DNA from: a virus
Lineage: Duplodnaviria > Caudoviricetes
Direction: 5' to 3' (one strand)
Virus record (IMG/VR): IMGVR_UViG_3300028888_001628
Coordinates: 1 to 64,000 of that record
DNA: 64,000 bases
In this document: in pieces, positions 1 through 13,323 of the stretch
How the letters are laid out: the number at the start of each line of letters is the position of its first letter
Numbering within the stretch: position 1 is the stretch's first letter
Program-made: the position numbers and the translations under genes
The notes under the pieces: generated by a model
Told to the model about the DNA's origin: nothing
What the model saw: the letters and a program-made list of their open reading frames with translations, nothing else
Databases searched by the model: none

Positions 1-287
1 CTGCTATGTTTAAAACAATTCCAGCGTGCTATCATTACAAAGAGCCTCGATTATATACCATGAGAGAGTGGTTAACCACAATGGGAATGCCATACGATTT
101 TATTATGTATGGCGATGTTAAAAACTATTTTTATAAAATTGGTCAGAATGTTCCAGCTAGAACAGCTGAATTCATTATTAGTGAAGCTGTAAATGTAATA
201 GAAAATTGGGATTCAGTCGATCGTATTGTAGATAAGAAAAATGTACTATTTGACAATATTAAACAAAAAATTACTTCATTAAGTTAG
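1..287 (+). CDS. C5-cytosine DNA methyltransferase, C-terminal part (5' truncated)
   Basis: RLYTMREW..MGMPYDF and KIGQNVP resemble motifs IX and X of C5 MTases. Confidence 0.75.
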   Translation, partial: AMFKTIPACYHYKEPRLYTMREWLTTMGMPYDFIMYGDVKNYFYKIGQNVPARTAEFIISEAVNVIENWDSVDRIVDKKNVLFDNIKQKITSLS

Positions 288-4241: not shown

Positions 4242-4934
4242 ATGAATAGTATTAAAACAACCGAAGACATTAGAAAAGAGCTTGTTAGTCTGTATAGCGA
4301 TAAGTGTTTTCGTACAGGCAAATATGGAATGACTGTAGAAATTCAAAATGTGCATTTTCTTGCTGATAAAGACTGGATTATTCGCAAACCAAATTATGAT
4401 TATGCAAAAAGAGAGATTCAATGGTATGAGTCACAGTCTCTGTATGTCAAAGATATTCCTGGTGATGTACCAAAGATTTGGCAAATGTGTGCTGATAAAG
4501 ATGGGAAGATAAATTCTAACTATGGATGGTGCATTTGGTCTGAAGAAAACGGTAGTCAGTTTAAACACTGTGTAGAAAGATTATTAGATGATCATTGTAC
4601 TCGTGAAGCATGTATGATTTACAATAGACCTTCTATGCAAGTTGATTGTAACAAGAACGATATGCATGATTTCATGTGTACATTCTCTACTCAACATTTT
4701 TTAAATGAAATTGATGAGAATAAATTTAGATTAGATTACACAGTTTTTCAGAGAAGCTGCGATGCGTGCTTTGGGTATAATAACGATAAACTCTGGCATG
4801 ATTACGTTCAATCTTATTTATTAGAAGCTCTACGGTCAAAAGGTCTTAACGTTAAATCAGGAAATATGATTTACAACTGTGGATCACTTCATGTTTACGA
4901 ACGACATTTTAAACATTTACAGTTAATAGATTAA
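4242..4934 (+). CDS. dCMP hydroxymethylase-like thymidylate synthase homolog (T4 gp42 family)
   Basis: INSNYG, DFMCT catalytic Cys, RSCDACFGYNND with Asp at the dCMP-specificity position, SLHVYERHF. Confidence 0.85.
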   Translation: MNSIKTTEDIRKELVSLYSDKCFRTGKYGMTVEIQNVHFLADKDWIIRKPNYDYAKREIQWYESQSLYVKDIPGDVPKIWQMCADKDGKINSNYGWCIWSEENGSQFKHCVERLLDDHCTREACMIYNRPSMQVDCNKNDMHDFMCTFSTQHFLNEIDENKFRLDYTVFQRSCDACFGYNNDKLWHDYVQSYLLEALRSKGLNVKSGNMIYNCGSLHVYERHFKHLQLID

Positions 4935-4942
4935 TTTACTTT

Positions 4943-4977
4943 AAATCACCAGAAAAAAATTTTTTCTGGTGATTTTT
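4943..4977 (+). terminator. Intrinsic terminator
   Basis: AAATCACCAGAAAAA/TTTTTCTGGTGATTT plus T tail. Confidence 0.7.
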
Positions 4978-4978
4978 G

Positions 4979-5007
4979 TTTACATATGAAATAGAAAGTT
5001 TTATAGT
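4979..5007 (+). promoter_or_regulatory. Sigma70-like promoter of second sugar module
   Basis: TTTACA-17 nt-TATAGT. Confidence 0.6.
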
Positions 5008-5052
5008 TATATTTGTAAGTTGGGATTACCTATTTTATTGAGAGGTAAGCAA

Positions 5053-5955
5053 ATGATTTCACAAAATAATCTTGGAATTAATCTTGGTTTTGCGAATAAT
5101 CGTTTTCCAGAACCAGAAGTATGGACTGACATAGTTGCTAATAAGCTTGACTTACATAAAGTTCAGTTTGTAGCTGACATTCTTAATCCAACTCTAAAGC
5201 TATACAATAAAGATTACTATGACAGTCAGATAAATAAAACTGTTGAATGTATAGCTAAACACAGCATTAGTGTTACTTCTATAATGACTTCATCATTTAC
5301 TAGAGTAAATCATTTCGCTCATCCGGATAAAGAATACAAAGATGCCTGGTTAGCATGGTTTAATGATTTTCTTGACATGGGTAAAAAGCTTGGGGCTAAA
5401 TCGGCTGGATCTCATTTTGGTATTTTAACAGTTGAGTCTTTGGTTAATAAAGATAAGTTATACAAAGATGCTATACATTATTGGGCTGAACTATCTATTA
5501 TAGCAAGAGATTTAAATTACGACTTTCTTTTCTTTGAACCAATGTCTGTTGATAGAGAATTTGGTAATACTATTGAGAAGACAGAACAAATACTAAGTGA
5601 TTTAAATGAAGTATCAGCTATTCCATTTAAGATTTGTTTAGATGTCGGTCATGCGCCTCATCCATCTCAAAGAGACTATAAAGAGTGGATGAAAAGATTA
5701 GCTAAAGACAGTCCAATAATTCATTTACAACAGACTACTTTAAATAATTCAAATCACTCTCCTTTCACATCTATCTACAACACTAATGGAATTATAGATC
5801 CGTATTGGATTATTAATTTACTAAATGAATCTGGACTATCTCCAGAATTGGATTTTGAGATTGGCTTTAGAGAAAAAGAAGAAATTGAGCATACAGTAAT
5901 AAATGACTTAGTTGAATCGGCTAACTATTGGAAACAGTGCATAGGTGGAAACTAA
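5053..5955 (+). CDS. Xylose-isomerase-like TIM-barrel sugar-phosphate epimerase (EryC-like)
   Basis: GINLGFANNRFPEP, EPM, LDVGH, IHLQQ metal ligands; ATG 5053 follows GAGG. Confidence 0.7.
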   Translation: MISQNNLGINLGFANNRFPEPEVWTDIVANKLDLHKVQFVADILNPTLKLYNKDYYDSQINKTVECIAKHSISVTSIMTSSFTRVNHFAHPDKEYKDAWLAWFNDFLDMGKKLGAKSAGSHFGILTVESLVNKDKLYKDAIHYWAELSIIARDLNYDFLFFEPMSVDREFGNTIEKTEQILSDLNEVSAIPFKICLDVGHAPHPSQRDYKEWMKRLAKDSPIIHLQQTTLNNSNHSPFTSIYNTNGIIDPYWIINLLNESGLSPELDFEIGFREKEEIEHTVINDLVESANYWKQCIGGN

Positions 5956-5956
5956 T

Positions 5957-6910
5957 ATGAAAGCAATTCAAATTGAAAAAGATTTTAATAATTCATCTAT
6001 TGTTGATTTAGATGAACCCACTGTAGAAGAAAATCAATTGTTATTAAACGTAAAAGCAGTAGGCATCTGTCAATCAGATATTGCTAGAGTATTTAATCAA
6101 TCTGCATATTATTATCCTATTATACTAGGACATGAGTTCTCTGGCATAGTTAATGGAAATAAATCAACAGTGTTTCCTATTATACCATGTAGAAAGTGTG
6201 CTGAATGTAGTTTGGGAAATTATGCACAGTGTTCTAATTATTCGTACTATGGCTCTAGACAAAGTGGTGGGATGCAGGAACGAATAGCCGTTAGAAAATG
6301 GAATATCATAAGTGATGATAAACTTTCTTGCGAAGAATTAGCTCTTATAGAACCAAGTGCAGTTGCTATGAATGCTATTCGTTTCATTGATAAATACTGT
6401 AGATCCGTTTTAATAAATGGATGTGGTTTTATCGCTTTAGTAGCTGCGCAAATACTTACACATGTTGGTAAAACAGTGTATATTAGAAATAGAAATCAGG
6501 AGAAGTTAAAGTTTGCAGTTAAGAACTTTGATTTAATTGAATATAAAGATCAGCCATTTGACTGTGCTATTGATTTTGTTTCTAACTCTGCGTCAATGAA
6601 TTTCTTAATTGAAAAAGTAAAATCGCATGGTTCAATCATAGCGGTAGGAAATCCTTCAAATGAAGTAACTTTTGATAAAGCTAATTATTCAAAAGTTTTG
6701 CGAAAAGAACTAAACATTCGTGGGATTTGGAATTCACATCGTGAAGATTGGCTTGATGTTATTAAACTTATTAGTGATCGTAGTATTGATGTGAATAAAC
6801 TAATTACACATAAATACGATTATACTGATTTTAAGAAAGCATTTGAGAAAATAAGAGATAATCAAACAAATTACAACGAGCTGATTATTAAGAGTGTTAT
6901 TTTATTTTAA
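5957..6910 (+). CDS. Zn-dependent polyol(-phosphate) dehydrogenase, GatD-like
   Basis: GICQSD, LGHEFSG, CxxCxxC(x7)C, EPSAV. Confidence 0.85.
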   Translation: MKAIQIEKDFNNSSIVDLDEPTVEENQLLLNVKAVGICQSDIARVFNQSAYYYPIILGHEFSGIVNGNKSTVFPIIPCRKCAECSLGNYAQCSNYSYYGSRQSGGMQERIAVRKWNIISDDKLSCEELALIEPSAVAMNAIRFIDKYCRSVLINGCGFIALVAAQILTHVGKTVYIRNRNQEKLKFAVKNFDLIEYKDQPFDCAIDFVSNSASMNFLIEKVKSHGSIIAVGNPSNEVTFDKANYSKVLRKELNIRGIWNSHREDWLDVIKLISDRSIDVNKLITHKYDYTDFKKAFEKIRDNQTNYNELIIKSVILF

Positions 6911-6933
6911 CCACTATCTATATAGGTGTAAGA

Positions 6934-7956
6934 ATGATTCAGGCTGTATTAAAAGAACTCGGTAAGATTGAACTAAAGCGCGTTTCTCGTAAAAAGCTTA
7001 AGCCAGGTGAGATACGACTTAAGGTTATTTCGTGTGCTATATGCGGATCAGATATTCGTATTTATAATTACGGTAATTCTAGAGTAAATTTACCGCACGT
7101 GATAGGTCATGAAGTAGTAGGTAAGATAATTGAAGTACCTGATGATTGTAATCTTACTGTTGGTGATTATTGCTGCTTTGGAGCAGATCTTCCATGTGGT
7201 GACTCTAATTGTAAATATTGTAAAGCTGGTGACTTTGGATCATGTGATAAAAATTTAGCAATTGGTTACCAATTTGATGGTGGATTTGCTGAAGAAATGA
7301 TTATTCCAAAAGTATGTTATAGCTATGGAGCTGCTTTTGGAGTTATACCAGTAGTAGGCAGTGATGTATATAAATACTCATTGGTTGAGCCTTTAGCATG
7401 TGCTATTCATGGAGTTGAGCCAATGAATATTAAAACATCAGATGATGTTTTAATATTTGGTGGTGGACCAATTGGATTAATGATTGGTGATATATGTTTA
7501 AATTTAGAAAAGTGTAATTCTGTTACTATTGTGGAATTATCACCAGCTAGAGTAGATCTAATTCATAAGCTGTTTCCAAAGTTTAATGTTACAAGTGATT
7601 ATAAAACACTCGATAAAGAGTTTGATGTAATATTTACAGCTAATTCAGCGTCAGATTGTCATAGAATAGCTGTTGATATGGCTGCTAAAAATGCACGTAT
7701 AAATTACTTTGGTGGATTAGGCATTAAAGAGCTTGTACCTATTGACACTAATAAAATTCATTATAAACAGTTAATGATTACTGGAACACACGGTTCACGA
7801 AAATGCGACTTTGATAAAGCTTATACATGCGTTAAGTCGAATTGGTTAGACATGAACAAATATATTACATCGGTGTTTTCTTTAAAAGACATCAATAAAG
7901 CCTTTGATGCTGCTAAAGACTTATGTAACCTTAAGATTATTATAAAGGGTGAGTAG
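6934..7956 (+). CDS. Zn-dependent polyol dehydrogenase, iditol/sorbitol DH-like
   Basis: ICGSD, GHEVVG, structural Zn cysteines, EPLAC, GGGPIG. Confidence 0.85.
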   Translation: MIQAVLKELGKIELKRVSRKKLKPGEIRLKVISCAICGSDIRIYNYGNSRVNLPHVIGHEVVGKIIEVPDDCNLTVGDYCCFGADLPCGDSNCKYCKAGDFGSCDKNLAIGYQFDGGFAEEMIIPKVCYSYGAAFGVIPVVGSDVYKYSLVEPLACAIHGVEPMNIKTSDDVLIFGGGPIGLMIGDICLNLEKCNSVTIVELSPARVDLIHKLFPKFNVTSDYKTLDKEFDVIFTANSASDCHRIAVDMAAKNARINYFGGLGIKELVPIDTNKIHYKQLMITGTHGSRKCDFDKAYTCVKSNWLDMNKYITSVFSLKDINKAFDAAKDLCNLKIIIKGE

Positions 7957-7958
7957 CT

Positions 7959-8594
7959 ATGTTTTCAAGTTCTATAATGTGTGTAAATCAGCTTGAATTA
8001 AAAAGCTATATAGATTTGTTTAATAAATATAAATTTGGAATGATTCACATTGACATTATGGACGGTAAATTTGTAAATAATATAATGTACGGTCCATACA
8101 TTATTAATGATCTTAGAAAGTATACAGATTTAAAATTTGACATTCACCTAATGATAGATAAACCAGAATATAAATTAGGTATGTTTAATTTTAATAGTAA
8201 TGATAGAGTGGCTATTCATTACGAATCTACAAAGAATTTAATGCAGACTATCTTAATGTATAAAGAAAAAGTGGGTGAGTTGTTTATTGCAATAAATCCA
8301 GCTACTCCAGTGTTTTTACTTGAAGAAGTTATTGGTATTATTGATGGCATATTAGTTATGTGCGTAAATCCAGGGTTTGCTTCACAGGATATGATTTTTA
8401 ATATACCAAACAAGATTAAGAATATTCATAAATTATATCCTGAATTAAAGATTGAAGTAGATGGTCATATTACGCCTGATTATTACTATCAATTCAAAGA
8501 TATGGGCGTAGAAGATTTTGTATTAGGGACTTCATTTATTTTTAAGAATGGTTTAATTGGGACTGAATCTATTATAAAAGGGTTATCTGTATAA
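7959..8594 (+). CDS. Ketose-phosphate 3-epimerase (Rpe/AlsE family)
   Basis: HIDIMDG, DIHLM, INPATP, VNPGF, EVDG; N-term SIMC resembles AlsE SLMC. Confidence 0.85.
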   Translation: MFSSSIMCVNQLELKSYIDLFNKYKFGMIHIDIMDGKFVNNIMYGPYIINDLRKYTDLKFDIHLMIDKPEYKLGMFNFNSNDRVAIHYESTKNLMQTILMYKEKVGELFIAINPATPVFLLEEVIGIIDGILVMCVNPGFASQDMIFNIPNKIKNIHKLYPELKIEVDGHITPDYYYQFKDMGVEDFVLGTSFIFKNGLIGTESIIKGLSV

Positions 8595-10150
8595 TGAGTG
8601 CGTACCAAGTAATTATTACATTAGGTGGGACTGGTAAACGATTTGCTGATGCGGGCTATGAGTTACCAAAGTATATGCTTCCTATTAGCATCTTTGATTC
8701 TAATTATAAGGTAATTGATTTAGTAACAAAGATGTATGAAGACAATGATACTGATATTTTATTTTTGTGTAATAAAGATCATATTGAAAAGTATAACCTA
8801 AAACAATTACTTGGTAAATATGGTACAGTGATACCAGTTGTACCTGGTAAAGGGCCAGGTGATGCTATATTGCAGGCTAAAAATTTTATCGATGTTAATA
8901 AACCAACGTTTGTACAGTATTGCGATACTTTTCAGCCATGGGATTTACAAAAGATTAAGAACTATATAGAAAAGTATAACCCAGATTCAGCAGTGGTTGT
9001 TACGAATGAGAAGTGTCCTTCTGTATATGACGGAACATTGTATGGAAGAGTAAAAATAAAAAATAATCTTATAAAAGATATTAAAGAAAAAGCTGAGCCA
9101 GAGTATTCAGACTATCTTGGCTGTGGTACATTTTACTTTAGAAGTGGTCTTGTATTACTTAAATATATTGAAATACAAGATAAAGATAAAGATAAGTATT
9201 ATTTAAACGGTGAGTCATATATTAATTGTACAATAAAGGCAATGCTAGATGATTGTCAAAATGTGATTCCTATAAATGTAACTGACTATCTAAATCTTGG
9301 TGTACCACGTGACTATGAAGAATATATGTATTGGCAAAGACTTGAGTGTAAGTATGCCAATAAAATTACTCATAAAGGACCAATACTCCAAGATTCTACC
9401 ATTATTATGCCTGCCGCTGGTTTAGGTTCAAGATTTAAAAATGTATATAATAAACCTAAGCCATTAATTGATGTTAATAATTCTCCGATGTACAAAGAGG
9501 CTATTAATCTATCTTTTAATCCGGAGAATGTTGTTATTGTTACTAGAAAGGATTTAGAATTTTATAAAGAATTCAAAGATTCTGCTGAAGGTAATGATTA
9601 CACTTTTATAGGTCTTGATTCTATAACTGATGGTCAAGCTATTACAGTTAAAGAGGGATTAAAAGAAATTACACATGGGCCTATTATTATAAATTCGTGT
9701 GATCAGGGAATTTTATATGATGAGGTTAGATTTAATAATATTTATGATTCATCAGATATTATAGTATGCGGTATTAAGAACTATCAACCAGCTTTACGAA
9801 AAGTGAATTCTTTTTCATGGATTAAATGTGATGGAGATAGTGTTATTGAAGTTACGTCAAAAAGATGTGACGGAGATCCAAAAGAAAGTTTAGCTTTTGT
9901 AAGCTGTTTATTGTATAAAAATAAACACATTTTAGAAGATAGTATAAATGCTCTTATTAAAAGAGGAGCTAAAACTAATGGTGAATATTATATAGATGAA
10001 TCCATAAATGATAGTATTTCACTTGGGTATAAAGTAAAAGTTCTTGAGATAGATGCTTATCTTAACTGGGGAACTCCAGAAGAATTAGAACTATATCAAT
10101 GGTGGAATCGATTTTTTACTAAAACAGGTTTGTATGATTATTTGGCATAG
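8594..10150 (+). CDS. Tandem two-domain sugar nucleotidyltransferase
   Basis: GGTGKRF..PKY...LGVPRDY and PAAGLGSRF..PKPLI...WGTPEEL. Confidence 0.85.
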   Translation: MSAYQVIITLGGTGKRFADAGYELPKYMLPISIFDSNYKVIDLVTKMYEDNDTDILFLCNKDHIEKYNLKQLLGKYGTVIPVVPGKGPGDAILQAKNFIDVNKPTFVQYCDTFQPWDLQKIKNYIEKYNPDSAVVVTNEKCPSVYDGTLYGRVKIKNNLIKDIKEKAEPEYSDYLGCGTFYFRSGLVLLKYIEIQDKDKDKYYLNGESYINCTIKAMLDDCQNVIPINVTDYLNLGVPRDYEEYMYWQRLECKYANKITHKGPILQDSTIIMPAAGLGSRFKNVYNKPKPLIDVNNSPMYKEAINLSFNPENVVIVTRKDLEFYKEFKDSAEGNDYTFIGLDSITDGQAITVKEGLKEITHGPIIINSCDQGILYDEVRFNNIYDSSDIIVCGIKNYQPALRKVNSFSWIKCDGDSVIEVTSKRCDGDPKESLAFVSCLLYKNKHILEDSINALIKRGAKTNGEYYIDESINDSISLGYKVKVLEIDAYLNWGTPEELELYQWWNRFFTKTGLYDYLA

Positions 10151-10694
10151 AGTAAATACTATCGATGAATTAAAAGAAATCCCACTTGATGATGGAGTTG
10201 AGATTGATATACGATCTATTAAAGGTAGACCATATTTATCACACTTCATTGATCAAGATGGGGTTCTGTTTGAAGAATGGATAAAATATTATCACCTTAA
10301 AGGTACGCTAGTACTAAATGTAAAAGAAGAGGGGCTAGAAAGCATTTTAATAGACATATTAAATAAATATCAAATAACAAATTATGTATTCTTAGATGAG
10401 CCTTTCTGGTACTTACTGAATGCTTCTAGAAAGCTAAATAACAAAAACTTTGCAATAAGAGTGTCTAAGTTTGAATCGGTTGATACTGCTATCAAATCAA
10501 GGAAGCTTTCTGATTGGGTATGGTACGACTACTTTGATGATTATGTATGTGTAGAAGATATTAAGAAACTCATAAATAATGGCTTTAAAGTTATAATGCC
10601 ATCATGTGAACTTGTAAATTCTAAAACAGATTTTACTAATACACTAGAAAGAAATAACGTTCATTTATGGGCTATTTGTAAAGATAGGAGCTAG
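10134..10694 (+). CDS. GDPD/PI-PLC-like phosphodiesterase
   Basis: HRVN, GVEIDIR, SH, LNVKEEG, RVSKFE. Confidence 0.7.
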   Translation: MIIWHRVNTIDELKEIPLDDGVEIDIRSIKGRPYLSHFIDQDGVLFEEWIKYYHLKGTLVLNVKEEGLESILIDILNKYQITNYVFLDEPFWYLLNASRKLNNKNFAIRVSKFESVDTAIKSRKLSDWVWYDYFDDYVCVEDIKKLINNGFKVIMPSCELVNSKTDFTNTLERNNVHLWAICKDRS

Positions 10695-10698
10695 TTAT

Positions 10699-11583
10699 AT
10701 GAAGTCAGCTGAAGCGGTATTTATGTTACATGGTGATGTTAATAGAAAGTCTACTCTATTAAATATTATAAATGATAATGCTTACATAGTAGTTTGGCCA
10801 GATACTTCTAAAGAAGATGCTGTAAAGAATTTAGTTGGCTATGATCCGGCTAAACATACAATTATTAATATTGGAAATAAAGATAAGCTGTATATTGGAA
10901 GAAATAACATTATAGATTATTGTAAAGAGCATGGTATTAAACGATTTTGGATGGTTGATGATGACGTTTTTGATTTTAGATTAGGTGGCCCATCACAAGA
11001 ATTTAAAGAAAAAGTACGTCAGAATGGTAAAACCACTTTGATGAATGTAGAGTTTGATGATGATGTAGGTTTGGGCGGGATGACAATGCGCGGTGTAATG
11101 TTCAACAAAGCTGTTGATAAACCGCAATTCGGTAAGAGATTTATATGGGCTGTAGTATTTATCGATTTAGATTATAATAATATACGTTATTCTGTTGAGG
11201 GATATGACGATATCGATATGCAGCTAGAATGTGTTAAAAATGGGATTAAAATTCAGACTGTAAATTGGTTAGGTCACGCAAAGCCACAGTGGACAGTTAA
11301 GAAATCACTCAACTCACAATTAGATAAAATAAACTATAATAACTATATCATTTATAAAAAGTGGGGTGATACAGTTAAGATTGATGTTTATTATGATAAA
11401 AATAAGACTAAATACTTTAGAGTGCATACAAAGTACCCATACAATATAAAAAGCACAGATACTACAATATTTGCGACAGACACACTTGAATCATTTGTTA
11501 AATCATTAGAAGATGCTTTTAATAGTCATCCAGAGTCTTTTCACGTGTGTGGCTTACCTCATTTAAAAAAGAAAGATACTTAG
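10699..11583 (+). CDS. GT-A glycosyltransferase of the TET/JBP-associated (GREB1-like) / T-even second glucosyltransferase type
   Basis: GRNNIIDY...FWMVDDD and DDIDMQL motifs. Confidence 0.65.
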   Translation: MKSAEAVFMLHGDVNRKSTLLNIINDNAYIVVWPDTSKEDAVKNLVGYDPAKHTIINIGNKDKLYIGRNNIIDYCKEHGIKRFWMVDDDVFDFRLGGPSQEFKEKVRQNGKTTLMNVEFDDDVGLGGMTMRGVMFNKAVDKPQFGKRFIWAVVFIDLDYNNIRYSVEGYDDIDMQLECVKNGIKIQTVNWLGHAKPQWTVKKSLNSQLDKINYNNYIIYKKWGDTVKIDVYYDKNKTKYFRVHTKYPYNIKSTDTTIFATDTLESFVKSLEDAFNSHPESFHVCGLPHLKKKDT

Positions 11584-11677: not shown

Positions 11678-11956
11678 ATGAACAAATTATTTATTCTGAT
11701 TGCAGTATTGTTTGCACTTTTATTTGCAGTTAGTGCTAACGCGCAGCCAGTTGTATATTACCCGTATGACGTTTACGATTATATCTGCTATAAAGTAGCA
11801 CTTCCATACCCGCATACTAAATGTGAATATCGTAGAATTTATGATTACAGATATATTCCACCTCGTCATCATGTAAGACCATTACCTCCTCCGCCTCATA
11901 GGCATAGACATGGTCATCACCCACCGCCTCCGCCTAATAGAGGACATCATCGATAA
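11678..11956 (+). CDS. Small exported Pro/His/Arg-rich protein
   Basis: Signal peptide ending ANA; PPPPH repeats; GAGG before ATG 11678. Confidence 0.65.
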   Translation: MNKLFILIAVLFALLFAVSANAQPVVYYPYDVYDYICYKVALPYPHTKCEYRRIYDYRYIPPRHHVRPLPPPPHRHRHGHHPPPPPNRGHHR

Positions 11957-11960
11957 ATTT

Positions 11961-12054
11961 AAAGCCTATAGAAATTTCTATAGGCTTTTTCTATAATGTA
12001 TAGAGTTTTATAGATAAAATAAAAACCCATGAGGATTTGTTCTCATGGGTTTTT
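11961..12054. terminator. Two hairpins between convergent genes
   Basis: AAAGCCTATAGAA/TTCTATAGGCTTT and AAAAACCCATGAG/CTCATGGGTTTTT. Confidence 0.75.
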
Positions 12055-12066
12055 ATTAGCATTTAA

Positions 12067-13323
12067 TTAAAAAATTAGTGATCTTAAAAAGCTTTCTTTA
12101 AGTATTTCACATCCCTCTGGATTTTTCTCTGGGCGCCATTGCTCGATCACAGAGTGTGTTAATCGCAAACTTCTTGCTGAAACATTTTGTCCTTTAACAG
12201 TAGCAACCTTTCCATAATAATCAGGGTTAAGTTTTACAGATCCGTCATCAGCTATAATAGTAGCATCTTCTTTAATATAATCAGACACATTAGAGCAAGT
12301 TGCGATAGGATGTGTTACGATTGTACCGTCATCTTTTTCCATCTTAATAGAGAATACAAAACCAACAACCATATTAGCATTACGTGTATCATCATTACCA
12401 ACTACATAGTCAGTAACAAATGCGTCAATATCACTCGCAATGGAATCAGTTGTAGATCTTTTTACTTTTACACAATCAATAGTTCTTGAAGAAGTTGCAT
12501 GATAAACAGCATTTTTATTTTTAAGAACAATACCCTCACCATTGTTTGAGACAATACGATCATAAAAATCATGTTTTGCTTCTGGGTATTTATCTGTGTT
12601 TTCTACAACTGGGTTAATGTCACAACAGAATCCGCTTTTATTTAACATATTCGAAAGTTTTTTTGCATGATTGTGACGTACAGTCCATACTGAATCAATA
12701 AGTCTATCTTTATCATGCAGACAGTCAAACACGATAAATTTAAGTGGTGATCTCTTTTGTACTTCAATAGAATCAGCCGGGTTTAATGCTAATATTGCAG
12801 TTGTCGATTGCAGTTGTGTAAGACACCTAACGTTTGTTTCAGCTTCAGGGTCTGTACTAATAACTTCACAATCTAAAACGAAATTATATGCATAGTCAAA
12901 ATCTTTTGCAGTAACTAACACAGTGTCTGTATAATCCTGTGGAAGATAATCCTCAACTGAATTATTTCTACTATAGAAATGAAACTTTTTCTCTGAAGCA
13001 TCCCATACAATAAGCATCCTACAACCGTCGATCTTTTCTTCGGCAATCCAATCTTTTGAATCCCATACAAGCTTCTGTTGCTCTGGTTTAAGATCTTTAA
13101 TTCGTCTACATAATTGAGGTGTCTCTATTGATAGCATGAACTTTAAAGGCCATGGGATATTCTCAATAGACCCAAACTTTTCTTTAATAAAGTAATTACG
13201 AAGTGCAATTACGTAATCATCTTTCATTAGCTTTCGCCCAGCTGGTGTAACGGTGATACCTAATGAGTTACATTGATTCTGTAAATAATCAATTCTACGA
13301 CCACAAGAAATTGACATTAGCAA
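12067..13323 (-). CDS. ATP-dependent DNA ligase
   Basis: EEKIDGCR, LDCE, FD, EGIVLK, KVK, C-terminal OB domain. Confidence 0.92.
   Translation of the reverse strand: MLMSISCGRRIDYLQNQCNSLGITVTPAGRKLMKDDYVIALRNYFIKEKFGSIENIPWPLKFMLSIETPQLCRRIKDLKPEQQKLVWDSKDWIAEEKIDGCRMLIVWDASEKKFHFYSRNNSVEDYLPQDYTDTVLVTAKDFDYAYNFVLDCEVISTDPEAETNVRCLTQLQSTTAILALNPADSIEVQKRSPLKFIVFDCLHDKDRLIDSVWTVRHNHAKKLSNMLNKSGFCCDINPVVENTDKYPEAKHDFYDRIVSNNGEGIVLKNKNAVYHATSSRTIDCVKVKRSTTDSIASDIDAFVTDYVVGNDDTRNANMVVGFVFSIKMEKDDGTIVTHPIATCSNVSDYIKEDATIIADDGSVKLNPDYYGKVATVKGQNVSARSLRLTHSVIEQWRPEKNPEGCEILKESFLRSLIF

Follow-up and report, generated by a model that had tools for sequence, protein, structure and literature searches.

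Module 2 lies at positions 4943 to 11583 of the window (the whole 64,000-nucleotide stretch of phage DNA that was analysed), directly after the gene for a T4 gp42-type dCMP hydroxymethylase (4242..4934, + strand; PDB 1b49, E 7.5e-57). The upstream module 1/dCMP hydroxymethylase operon is closed by an intrinsic terminator on the + strand (4943..4975) with a 15-pair stem, a 3-nt loop and a T-run, which ranks second in strength among the terminator-like sites of the first 15 kb. A promoter-like site, TTTACA-17-TATAGT, follows on the same strand (4979..5007), as the earlier note had described, and so does its set of seven tightly packed genes: g1 to g7 are all on the + strand, with successive gaps (+) or overlaps (-) of +1, +23, +2, -1, -17 and +4 nt. 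Generic sigma-70 matches do not exceed chance in this 31% GC DNA (85 found, 93 expected); the class TTTACA-N17-TATA, of which this site is a member, has 10 copies in the window against 0.99 expected, mostly upstream of genes, and none of 100 shuffles reached 10. Separate promotion of the module is supported here, but an own terminator and promoter are not a constant trait of the cassette across relatives: a hairpin precedes the cassette in L018, a hairpin and a TTTACA motif precede an alternative cassette in L020, and in L011 the cassette comes directly after an upstream methylase gene. The cassette had also been described as ending in a GT-A glycosyltransferase. This gene, g7, is the last of the seven, but the transcription unit probably continues through a small gene (11678..11956, + strand) to a bidirectional terminator with a 16-pair stem (12018..12057), which is common to the convergent DNA ligase gene, is the strongest terminator-like site of the first 15 kb and is the probable end of the operon. 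The translation of the small gene has a signal peptide and, behind it, a tail rich in Tyr, Pro, His and Arg; a family search with it returned no match, and it probably has no part in the sugar pathway.

Matches to Pfam, PDB and PHROG entries, together with predicted folds, bear out all of the gene assignments made earlier from the raw sequence. The first gene, g1 (5053..5955), encodes an EryC-like TIM barrel of the xylose-isomerase fold, a predicted ketose-1-phosphate 3-epimerase (PF01261, 1.7e-13; PDB 4k3z, E 1.7e-45). Its probable start is ATG 5053, which lies 7 nt behind a GAGAGG ribosome-binding site; the in-frame TTG 5020 of the ORF list is a less likely start. Its best characterised relative, EryC of Brucella (PDB 4k3z), is a tetrulose-4-phosphate racemase of erythritol catabolism with a four-carbon substrate (PMC11508834), and epimerises the carbon beside a carbonyl that itself adjoins CH2-O-phosphate. 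g1 is much closer to uncharacterised enzymes of a bacterial operon than to EryC (approximately 49% identity to the product of the first gene of that operon, E ~1e-93). Two Zn-dependent medium-chain dehydrogenases follow. g2 (ADH1, GatD-like; 5957..6910) has ADH_N and ADH_zinc_N domains, matches PDB 4a2c (5e-36), retains both the catalytic and the structural Zn ligands and has galactitol-1-P 5-dehydrogenase as its best characterised relative; alignments of its orthologues all start at ATG 5957 and not at the listed GTG 5945. g3 (ADH2; 6934..7956) matches ADH_N (2.9e-19) and PDB 5kia (8e-26). g4 (7959..8594) belongs to the ribulose-phosphate 3-epimerase family (Rpe/AlsE; PF00834, 8.5e-44), with NCBIfam scores of 147-152 bits for Rpe and 128 bits for AlsE that lie below both equivalog cut-offs.

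The fifth gene, g5 (8594..10150), encodes a fused double sugar-phosphate nucleotidyltransferase (NTase; PF00483 over residues 7-215, PF12804 over residues 274-371). The G-x-G-x-R loops of both halves are invariant in four orthologues, so that the catalytic loop has been kept twice. g5 is 28-29% identical over its full length to gp204 of cyanophage S-SM2 and gp209 of Bellamy, and its counterpart in L020 and in bacteria is two separate genes. g6 (10134..10694) encodes a minimal phosphodiesterase of GDPD fold and motif (AF2 pLDDT 95.5; the top PDB matches by Foldseek are GDPDs, E 6e-7), whose family shows no variation at H5, R6, N8, D25 and H37 and almost none at E23. The NTases and the GDPD are genetically linked: members of the g6 family are fused to NTase, PRK, GT2 and GT61 proteins, including GDPD-NTase and GDPD-PRK gene fusions. 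Among the 21 metagenome loci with a double NTase that are 8 kb or longer, 17 have a GDPD, and 11 have in addition a PRK, a HAD and a class II aldolase.

The last gene, g7 (10699..11583), encodes a GT-A of the TAGT/beta-glucosyl-HMC-alpha-glucosyltransferase family (PF20691, 44.5 bits against a cut-off of 27.5; phrog_842, 1.7e-10). The best structural matches of its AF2 model (pLDDT 85) are TAGT proteins and a beta-glucosyl-HMC-alpha-glucosyltransferase, the top BFVD matches being TAGT-domain proteins (E 3.6e-11). D87-D89 of its DxD motif are invariant, and PF20691 was found in 32/32 homologue clusters. By Pfam, PHROG and predicted fold, g7 belongs with the T2/T6 beta-glucosyl-HMC-alpha-glucosyltransferase and the TET-associated glycosyltransferases, and a gp42-type dCMP hydroxymethylase accompanies it, as is the case in T-even phages. 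Known members of the family use host UDP-glucose or UDP-GlcNAc, whereas here the glycosyltransferase gene stands at the end of a donor pathway of six enzymes. A TET search gave no match here, and none in any control genome either. The hydroxymethylase retains the catalytic Cys and an Asp at the position of residue 169 of E. coli ThyA, so it is not of the D169N 5-hydroxy-dCMP type (PMC13326640), and is predicted to supply hmC as the acceptor base. The cassette of relatives adjoins C5-methylases, NrdD, a topoisomerase and a nucleotidase, and in four phages it lies among genes of nucleotide metabolism and DNA modification. Family membership and this context predict that g7 is a DNA sugar transferase; it could act on a non-DNA acceptor.

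The first four genes are a captured bacterial operon. They correspond one-to-one and in the same order to the genes of an operon, tim-adh1-adh2-rpe, that is found in Treponema primitia (identities of 49/35/36/36%) and in Clostridia. The order recurs in several phyla, in 52 of the 80 bacterial loci. Where its surroundings were sampled, the bacterial operon lies in a catabolic context, next to glycoside hydrolases or to an ABC sugar transporter and a ROK protein. The phage copies differ at the cofactor sites. At the end of beta-2 of ADH1, nearly all of 66 bacterial orthologues have Asp, as judged by eye, whereas 4/4 phage copies have IRNRN; in ADH2, most bacterial orthologues have (Q/N)RSxxR, whereas 4/4 phage copies have (V/L)E(L/I), which in g3 reads IVELS. 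To judge from these motifs, g2 has changed from NAD to NADP type and g3 from NADP to NAD type, a reciprocal switch that matches what a reversed flux would require. The same switch occurs in three loci of gut Clostridia (Oscillospiraceae/Lachnospiraceae; L059, L062 and L072), and these alone among the 80 also contain a homologue of g6 (E 1e-69 to 1e-73) and a pair of neighbouring NTase genes. Neighbouring genes were scanned in L059 and L062, where both have a GT2 and L062 also has GtrA and an acyltransferase. In the trees of ADH1, ADH2 and Rpe, the phage clade comes out as sister to the three loci (support 0.94, 0.87 and 0.91), a placement that could partly reflect convergence because all phage branches are long; the TIM tree does not group phages with the switched bacterial loci. 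The collinear operon, the switched motifs and the existence of bacterial loci uniting the switched operon with NTases, GDPD and GT2/GtrA together support the proposal of the earlier note that catabolic-type enzymes are used biosynthetically.

Comparison of related phages demonstrated that the cassette is mobile, in line with its earlier description as swappable. It occupies four different insertion sites and is absent from the equivalent, syntenic site of one relative, and in every phage copy g1-g4 share one operon with the NTases, the GDPD and the glycosyltransferase. A different sugar cassette is found in L020, together with an orthologue of g7 (64% identity) that is nested among the glycosyltransferases of the g1-g4 cassettes in the tree, a homologue of g6 (49%) and split NTases. 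Here g1-g4 are replaced by a phosphoribulokinase (PRK)-like kinase (NF005655, 6e-58; 196 bits against a cut-off of 236), a HAD protein whose best match is ribulose-1,5-bisphosphate (RuBP) 5-phosphatase (3e-31; 109 bits against a cut-off of 330) and a class II aldolase, with no recognisable reductase among the genes of this cassette. RuBP 5-phosphatase yields ribulose-1-P, and the haloarchaeal non-carboxylating pentose bisphosphate pathway, which is catabolic and ends in DHAP and glycolaldehyde, uses a RuBP phosphatase and a Ru1P aldolase (PMC9700705). In the alternative route, that of L020 and the 11 metagenome loci, a HAD resembling RuBP 5-phosphatase and a class II aldolase homologue likewise occur together, here with the PRK-like kinase, and this set implies a ribulose-1-P intermediate; the route differs from the haloarchaeal pathway in being linked to NTases, GDPD and glycosyltransferase, and all scores lie below the equivalog cut-offs. 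Since this route serves a nested glycosyltransferase orthologue, it points to a pentulose-1-phosphate donor.

On balance we favour a reading in which a mobile, self-contained operon makes an unusual nucleotide-activated sugar from intermediates of the pentose phosphate pathway and transfers it to the hmC DNA of the phage. A large uncultured gut or rumen phage would thus probably run a bacterial sugar-breakdown operon backwards and place an activated five-carbon keto-sugar on its own DNA. The Rpe-like g4 would equilibrate ribulose-5-P and xylulose-5-P, g2 with its NADP-type site would reduce the ketopentose-5-P to a pentitol phosphate, and g3 with its NAD-type site would re-oxidise this at the carbon adjoining the phosphate to give a pentulose-1-phosphate, so that the '5'-end phosphate becomes a '1'-end phosphate with neither kinase nor phosphatase. 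g1 would then epimerise C3, both NTase domains of g5, together with the GDPD-fold g6, would convert the product to a glycosyl donor, and g7 would transfer the sugar either to hmC directly or to a sugar placed by module 1. The flux direction, the pentulose-1-phosphate intermediate and the DNA acceptor are what we infer from sequence comparison. The L-sorbose operon of Klebsiella and Lactobacillus, with L-sorbose-1-P reductase and D-glucitol-6-P dehydrogenase, converts a ketose-1-P via an alditol phosphate to a ketose-6-P. We propose the same logic, likened by description, for tim-adh1-adh2-rpe and, reversed, for the phage, although the L-sorbose operon belongs to a hexose pathway, has a PTS context and operates catabolically. 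L-Sorbose-1-P reductase, the precedent for the g3 step, is a hexose enzyme, and we know of no characterised medium-chain dehydrogenase that oxidises a pentitol phosphate beside the phosphate. The 1-phosphate of a ketose is not anomeric, and the making of a true glycosyl donor by g5 and g6 is therefore conjecture.

The sugar itself may be L-xylulose, which is the sole product common to both routes if every enzyme performs the textbook reaction of its family. Judged by the alternative cassette, a pentulose such as xylulose is a better candidate than the hexuloses listed in the earlier note. Allulose, sorbose or tagatose made from fructose-6-P via a hexitol phosphate, with g4 as an AlsE-type hexulose-6-P 3-epimerase, would fit the nearly equal AlsE and Rpe scores of g4, the galactitol-1-P 5-dehydrogenase relative of g2, the fact that the known two-dehydrogenase 'phosphate flip' is a hexose pathway and the resemblance of the Treponema operon, which adjoins an ABC transporter, RbsD and a ROK protein, to an allose operon. 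We nevertheless regard a hexulose as unlikely, as the PRK-like kinase and RuBP-5-phosphatase-like HAD that serve the nested g7 orthologue are pentulose enzymes and the closest characterised relative of g1 takes a short ketose phosphate (PMC11508834).

Less probable still is a product resembling CDP-ribitol or CDP-arabinitol, whose alditol phosphate would be joined to a DNA sugar as a phosphodiester and trimmed or edited by g6. Pairing of a Zn-dehydrogenase with an IspD/MobA-like NTase follows TarJ/TarI logic, the second domain of g5 matches PF12804, and phosphodiester chemistry would suit a phosphodiesterase. NTases can also activate non-anomeric sugar phosphates, as with CDP-6-D-fructose and CDP-6-D-glucitol: in the CDP-6-D-glucitol pathway of Campylobacter jejuni HS:5, an NTase uses a ketose phosphate whose phosphate is not anomeric, and a dehydrogenase takes part as well (PMC10918830). 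This precedent covers those two elements of a nucleotide-sugar pathway, but the HS:5 pathway has a single NTase and a single reductase and lacks a phosphodiesterase, and the alditol phosphate is moved to the capsule (PMC10918830). Against an alditol, the terminal enzyme here is a GT-A with DxD and not a LicD-, TagF- or Stealth-type phosphotransferase, the bacterial counterparts have GT2 and GtrA, the L020 route lacks a recognisable reductase, and the opposite cofactor motifs of g2 and g3 suggest reduction followed by re-oxidation, with no final alditol.

We give a similarly low probability to remodelling of a host surface glycan or glycosylation of a phage protein. In cells, g1-g6 find their nearest counterpart in a surface-glycan locus (GT2, GtrA, acyltransferase), the small secreted protein is probably co-transcribed with the cassette, and the g5 homologues of S-SM2 and Bellamy, also full-length fused double NTases, lie in large 'LPS-like' clusters, where a small HAD and a class II aldolase are close by. 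These clusters are usually attributed to surface polysaccharide; neither a GDPD homologue nor a TAGT was found within 8 kb of those NTases. Against this reading, the phages have replaced GT2/GtrA by a soluble GT of a DNA-glycosyltransferase family (PF20691 in all homologue clusters), the cassette lacks a flippase, a polyprenol transferase and a membrane GT, and its neighbours in four phages are genes of nucleotide metabolism and DNA modification. A role as an auxiliary catabolic module, by which a polyol or rare sugar would enter the pentose phosphate pathway of the infected host, is very improbable even though the source operon of g1-g4 is catabolic in most bacteria, given the single operon with NTases, GDPD and GT in every phage copy, the switch of both cofactor motifs from the catabolic form and a cassette with neither transporter nor kinase.

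For the preferred reading, DNA modification with a phage-made pentulose, the arabinosyl-cytosine systems of RB69, DLP3 and HY126 (AfhE/AfhF) provide a parallel in their phage-encoded NDP-sugar pathway from ribulose-5-P, and they too adjoin a thymidylate-synthase homologue and DNA glycosyltransferases (PMC13326640). Module 2 differs in having no SIS isomerase, kinase or phosphatase and in possessing two dehydrogenases, a TIM epimerase, two NTase domains and a GDPD. Its base enzyme keeps the Asp of the hmC type and is not of the 5-hydroxycytosine type, and its glycosyltransferase is GT-A and not GT-B. A cassette of the arabinosyl type, consisting of a SIS isomerase, Rpe, an NTase-kinase and a HAD, is present in a relative (L003/L008).

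Judged by its gene content, module 2 is probably a system for glycosylating phage 5-hydroxymethylcytosine (hmC) with a donor pathway that lacks a characterised counterpart; the feature proposed in the earlier note is real and its interpretation largely correct. The window covers the opening 64 kb of an IMG/VR phage contig of 156 kb with 31% GC, estimated to be about 68% complete. Relatives of this phage have genes for an anaerobic ribonucleotide reductase and for T4-like parts, and the bacteria whose genes come closest to those of the cassette are anaerobes of gut, rumen and termites. Set beside the 31% GC, this indicates that the host is probably a low-GC anaerobe. The terminator, separate promoter and seven tightly packed genes described earlier are all present. 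A hairpin at 4943-4975, with 15 pairs and a T-run after it, closes the upstream operon, the promoter-like site TTTACA-17-TATAGT lies 3' of it at 4979-5007, and the gaps between the seven genes range from -17 to +23 nt. A generic sigma-70 scan of the window gave 85 sites against 93 expected, which is no enrichment in AT-rich DNA. The TTTACA-N17-TATA form occurs 10 times against 0.99 expected, mostly 5' of genes, and the site at 4979-5007 therefore represents the phage's own promoter class. The first gene (g1) starts at ATG 5053, with a GAGAGG site 7 nt upstream, and the second (g2) at ATG 5957, the first position of every orthologue alignment. Transcription probably continues past the terminal glycosyltransferase gene (g7) through a small plus-strand gene at 11678-11956 to a strong bidirectional terminator with a 16-pair stem at 12018-12057, which separates the cassette operon from a convergent, minus-strand ATP-dependent DNA ligase gene (12067-13323). 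The product of the small gene has no family match; a clear signal peptide (MNKLFILIAVLFALLFAVSANA) precedes a tail rich in Tyr, Pro, His and Arg that has PPPP runs, and no counterpart lies 3' of the cassette in the related phage locus L018. In the related fragment L003 the ligase and module 1, the operon upstream of module 2, point the same way, unlike in the window, so an inversion separates these two genomes here.

The first four genes encode a xylose-isomerase-fold TIM barrel (g1), two dehydrogenases (g2, ADH1; g3, ADH2) and an Rpe-family protein (g4). The TIM barrel (PF01261, 51 bits, cut-off 31) has Brucella EryC as its sole strong solved relative (PDB 4k3z, E 1.7e-45, residues 7-295), a tetrulose-4-phosphate racemase (PMC11508834). 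Assignment as a UlaE-type L-xylulose-5-phosphate 3-epimerase was rejected, as neither PDB nor NCBIfam gave a match in that branch and no strong match other than EryC turned up. Both dehydrogenases are zinc-dependent medium-chain enzymes with complete catalytic and structural zinc sites: C42, H63 and E64, four Cys at 82-96 and the Rossmann motif GCGFIA in g2; C37, H59 and E60, a Cys cluster at 88-104 and GGGPIG in g3. The nearest relative of g2 is galactitol-1-phosphate 5-dehydrogenase (4a2c, 5e-36) and those of g3 are threonine and scyllo-inosose dehydrogenases, both proteins falling far below the cut-offs of the NCBIfam equivalogs GatD and Tdh. The Rpe-family protein matches PF00834 at 150 bits and is below the equivalog cut-offs for TIGR01163 (147 against 212.6 bits), PRK05581 (152 against 165) and AlsE (128 against 271).

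Two series can be told apart among the homologues of g1, one phage-like at 57-94% identity and one bacterial at close to 50%. In Treponema primitia the products of a TIM-ADH-ADH-Rpe operon match g1 to g4 one for one, in the same order (49, 35, 36 and 36% identity), and this operon adjoins an ABC sugar transporter, RbsD and a ROK protein. Clostridia carry it among glycoside hydrolases and sulfatases, in some cases with a URO-D-family gene inserted. The operon (L015 10001-13693; L024-L103) occurs in at least five phyla, the 80 loci of a species-genome scan (L024-L103) coming from Spirochaetes, Bacillota, Chloroflexota, Bacteroidota and Actinomycetota, and 52 of these 80 have the exact order TIM-ADH-ADH-Rpe. 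It seems to encode an uncharacterised catabolic pathway, possibly converting a pentulose-1-phosphate to xylulose-5-phosphate by way of a pentitol phosphate. By this match in sequence and order, g1 to g4 appear to be a bacterial operon captured by the phage.

The phage copies have exchanged the cofactor motifs of both dehydrogenases. An acidic residue at the end of Rossmann strand beta-2 marks an NAD enzyme and Arg or Ser an NADP enzyme. At this site ADH1 reads L-x-D-(I/V)-D in nearly all of 66 bacterial sequences and Y-I-R-N-R-N in all four phage sequences; ADH2 reads (Q/N)-R-S-x-x-R in most of 66 bacterial sequences and (V/L)-E-(L/I)-(S/N) in all four from phages. For a pathway of reduction followed by oxidation, a reciprocal exchange of motifs is what opposite flux requires, which argues that the phage pathway, as it appears, runs counter to the catabolic operon. 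The same double switch was found in three bacterial loci (L059, L062 and L072), from uncultured gut Oscillospiraceae and Lachnospiraceae. Only these three of the 80 also carry a homologue of the cassette's GDPD-fold enzyme, g6 (E 1e-69 to 1e-73), together with two adjacent nucleotidyltransferase (NTase) genes, a pair that matches the halves of the fused double NTase, g5, in order. In a neighbour scan of L059 and L062, a GT2 gene lay beside both, and GtrA and an acyltransferase were present in L062. Taken together, the operon match, the double motif switch and this bacterial NTase/GDPD counterpart support, at the level of sequence, the suggestion in the earlier note that catabolic-type enzymes are used biosynthetically.

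Trees of ADH1, ADH2 and Rpe each place the phage clade as sister to these three loci (support 0.94, 0.87 and 0.91). The TIM tree disagrees with these trees on the bacterial sister group of the phages, and because of this conflict a bacterial origin of the cassette is proposed tentatively. The most economical reading is a history of three stages: a catabolic operon would first have become a nucleotide-sugar pathway for a bacterial surface glycan; phages would then have acquired the six-gene pathway, a direction of transfer that we infer; and a DNA glycosyltransferase would have taken the place of the GT2/GtrA transferase. A metabolic reversal thus appears to be readable in the sequence, with a four-gene catabolic operon made biosynthetic by reciprocal exchange of NAD and NADP sites, in the service first of a surface glycan and, once the transferase had been exchanged, of DNA.

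Several features of g7 and its surroundings point to DNA as the target. The protein matches PF20691 (TAGT) at 44.5-44.8 bits (Pfam gathering cut-off 27.5), a domain found in all 31 clusters of full-length g7 homologues, the sole cluster without it being shorter (266 aa). A 202-kb contig encodes an identical g7. Its model (AF2, pLDDT 85) matches GT-A enzymes in the PDB, its top BFVD matches are viral TAGT-domain proteins (E 3.6e-11, TM 0.61), and D87, D88 and D89, containing the GT-A DxD site, are invariant. The cassette follows directly after the module-1 GT-B and a T4 gp42-type dCMP hydroxymethylase (4242-4934; E 7.5e-57) that retains the catalytic Cys and Asp. The cassette's neighbours in relatives are C5-methylases on both sides (L011), NrdD, which precedes it (L018), or a nearby topoisomerase subunit and nucleotidase (L019), and the phage version has none of the membrane components of the bacterial one. 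The family of g7, the adjacent hydroxymethylase, the DNA-gene neighbours and the lack of membrane components are indirect but consistent support for a target that is probably DNA. The combination of a gp42-type hydroxymethylase with DNA glycosyltransferases (here the module-1 GT-B and the GT-A g7) is common to T-even phages and the window phage and is that of T-even hmC glycosylation.

Membership of the arabinosyl-5-hydroxycytosine (Afh) system, with 5-hydroxycytosine as acceptor, was considered and discarded. The thymidylate-synthase homologue of that system is recognised by Asn at E. coli ThyA position 169 (PMC13326640), whereas the window hydroxymethylase, with the motif QRSCDACFGYNND, keeps Asp at this position; by the criterion of PMC13326640 its product should be 5-hydroxymethyl-dCMP rather than 5-hydroxy-dCMP. 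A search of the 156-kb contig, about 68% complete, for PF12851 (TET/JBP) gave no match, a search that was blank in control genomes too. The predicted acceptor of g7 is either hmC itself or the sugar added by module 1; the PHROG that g7 matches, beta-glucosyl-HMC-alpha-glucosyltransferase, is named for addition to a first sugar.

The fused double NTase retains the G-x-G-x-R pyrophosphorylase loop in both domains (LGGTGKRF, residues 10-17; AAGLGSRF, 274-281), and these are conserved over four orthologues at 67-71% identity. At 186 aa, g6 is about 60 residues under the canonical GDPD length and had no Pfam or NCBIfam match at E 0.01, the GDPD family PF03009 included. A profile-free search placed it in a family of about 600 clusters, a divergent minimal GDPD branch with the GDPD signature H-R ... 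E-x-D ... H-D at the start of its consensus; across 49 homologues H5, R6, N8, D25 and H37 are invariant and E23 nearly so. Its AF2 model (pLDDT 95.5) has the TIM-barrel GDPD fold, with the GDPDs 3qvq, 3ks6, 2pz0 and 7e0v as top Foldseek matches (E 6e-7 to 5e-5, TM 0.66-0.77), and members of the family are fused to NTases, a PRK-family kinase, GT2 or GT61. A metagenome scan with g5 alone returned nothing and one with an alignment of g5 orthologues returned 80 loci. Among 21 genuine double-NTase loci of at least 8 kb, 17 had a GDPD, 15 a class II aldolase, 14 a HAD phosphatase and 12 a PRK-like kinase, with all four present in 11. One bacterial locus (L125) has the order PRK fusion, aldolase II, double NTase, GT2, GDPD, HAD. 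This set, recurrent in bacteria and large viruses (L125 7122-13536; L022 1-10223; L112-L132), looks like a nucleotide-sugar pathway; its kinase often carries a fused GDPD or membrane GT87-like domain, and L022, on a contig that also bears FtsH-like and desaturase genes, has HAD-aldolase II and GDPD-NTase fusions. The NTases and the GDPD appear to form a single functional core served by two front ends, and their linkage is a marker of a widespread, uncharacterised nucleotide-sugar pathway in bacteria and large viruses.

The second front end (route B) is found in the phage locus L020, with the order GDPD, aldolase II, NTase, NTase, PRK, HAD, TAGT. Its TAGT is 64% identical to g7 and nested in the GT tree among the transferases of TIM-ADH-ADH-Rpe (route A) cassettes, from which we infer that the donors reached through the two front ends are very probably identical or very similar. 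The L020 kinase scores 196 bits on the phosphoribulokinase model, and the best match of its HAD is ribulose-1,5-bisphosphate 5-phosphatase, which yields ribulose-1-phosphate in haloarchaea (PMC9700705). Route B would thus run from ribulose-5-phosphate through the bisphosphate to ribulose-1-phosphate, with epimerisation of the aldolase-II type giving a pentulose-1-phosphate. Route A would reach the same class of compound with no kinase or phosphatase: g2 would reduce a ketopentose-5-phosphate at C2 with NADPH, and g3 would oxidise the pentitol phosphate at the phosphate-adjacent carbon with NAD+, giving a product that on renumbering is a pentulose-1-phosphate. This shift of the phosphate is the logic of the L-sorbose operon in reverse. 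Inversion at C3 would fall to g1, a relative of EryC, the substrate of which is a ketose with its carbonyl adjoining CH2-O-P. If every enzyme performs its family's textbook reaction, route A would proceed from D-Ru5P through ribitol-5-P and L-Ru1P to L-Xu1P and route B by 4-epimerisation of D-Ru1P to L-Xu1P, so that L-xylulose-1-phosphate would be the point of convergence. In the catabolic direction the same scheme would give a role to all four bacterial enzymes, the terminal Rpe included. D-Xylulose or a ribulose is an alternative to this L-xylulose scheme, and a hexulose stays a rival, as g4 and g2 both have relatives that act on hexoses.

Two competent NTase domains and a GDPD recur as a constant trio, and this suggests a further idea, which we hold to be improbable: the phosphate, activated by NMP, would migrate to the anomeric oxygen by way of a cyclic phosphate, and a second nucleotidylation would follow. 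PI-PLC and GDPD enzymes use attack by a neighbouring hydroxyl and form a cyclic phosphate. NTase domain 1 would convert the pentulose-1-phosphate to NDP-1-pentulose; the GDPD would expel NMP with the neighbouring anomeric 2-OH, giving the 1,2-cyclic phosphate and then pentulose-2-phosphate; and NTase domain 2 would form the true donor, NDP-2-pentulofuranose, for use by a GT2 in bacteria and the TAGT in phages. Our literature search for a nucleotide-ketose pathway (xylulose, fructofuranose) found none. If true, the double NTase and GDPD would solve the general problem, so far unsolved, of attaching a nucleotide to the tertiary anomeric oxygen of a ketose, within a widespread pathway with two interchangeable front ends (PRK/HAD/aldolase II or the reversed tim-adh-adh-rpe set), and phage hmC would carry a ketofuranosyl group (xylulosyl or ribulosyl), a DNA modification so far undescribed.

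The note also held that the cassette looks swappable, and the comparison of loci agrees, if on fragments. The seven genes stay together in a block that has a different genomic position in each of four cases (the window, L011, L018 and L019); it is upstream of module 1 in L011 and downstream of it in the window. The L003/L008 relative, with a ligase 82% identical and module-1-region genes 57-70% identical to those of the window, has only small ORFs between hydroxymethylase and ligase, so module 2 is absent from this syntenic site (L003 is a 24-kb fragment, and its genome may have module 2 at another place); L020 adds the alternative front end. Beside its GT-B, L003/L008 instead has an Afh-like arabinose cassette (cf. 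PMC13326640). This cassette (L008 1375-4738, minus strand, with L003 2663-3847) comprises an SIS isomerase, Rpe, an NTase-kinase fusion and a small HAD; the same relative has the module-1 pair of KfoE-like kinase and NTase, and so two donor pathways in another combination. A movable cassette with two front ends, beside fructose-like and arabinose-like sugar modules in related phages, supports the view of DNA 'serotypes' diversifying under host defence pressure. Glycosylation is a main route by which phage DNA escapes restriction enzymes and CRISPR. The DNA sugars of phages known to us are glucose, gentiobiose, GlcNAc, arabinose and galactose/glucose chains, to which the cassette would add a new class, probably a ketopentose.

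The cassette, searched by megablast, and g7 and g1, searched by tblastn, gave no match in 50,697 GenBank phages, where only g5 has homologues, distant and in cyanophages; IMG/VR scans with g7 and g5 gave remote relatives only. The full-length homologues of the double NTase in S-SM2 (154113-155681) and Bellamy (164713-166287) are annotated 'dN-sugar pyrophosphorylase' or hypothetical protein and are followed by a conserved 370-aa protein of unknown function and a class II aldolase. Small 'phosphoheptose isomerase' genes of these phages resemble the module-1 HAD phosphatase, and a profile search of the cyanophage clusters for a g6 homologue found none. Mobile elements adjoin some of the loci: a NUMOD3 homing endonuclease gene (L003 11288-12214, minus strand) beside the ligase, and an IS605 OrfB/TnpB-like gene with LAGLIDADG and NUMOD3 genes (L020 961-2148 and 13413-17341) beside the sugar locus. 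Paralogues of a C5-cytosine DNA methylase flank the sugar modules in the window (6-287), L011 (8677-9981 and 16559-17836), L008 (6282-7583) and L003 (3869-5137), in genomes of a phage group that also encode a dCMP hydroxymethylase and whose DNA is expected to be hmC-substituted.
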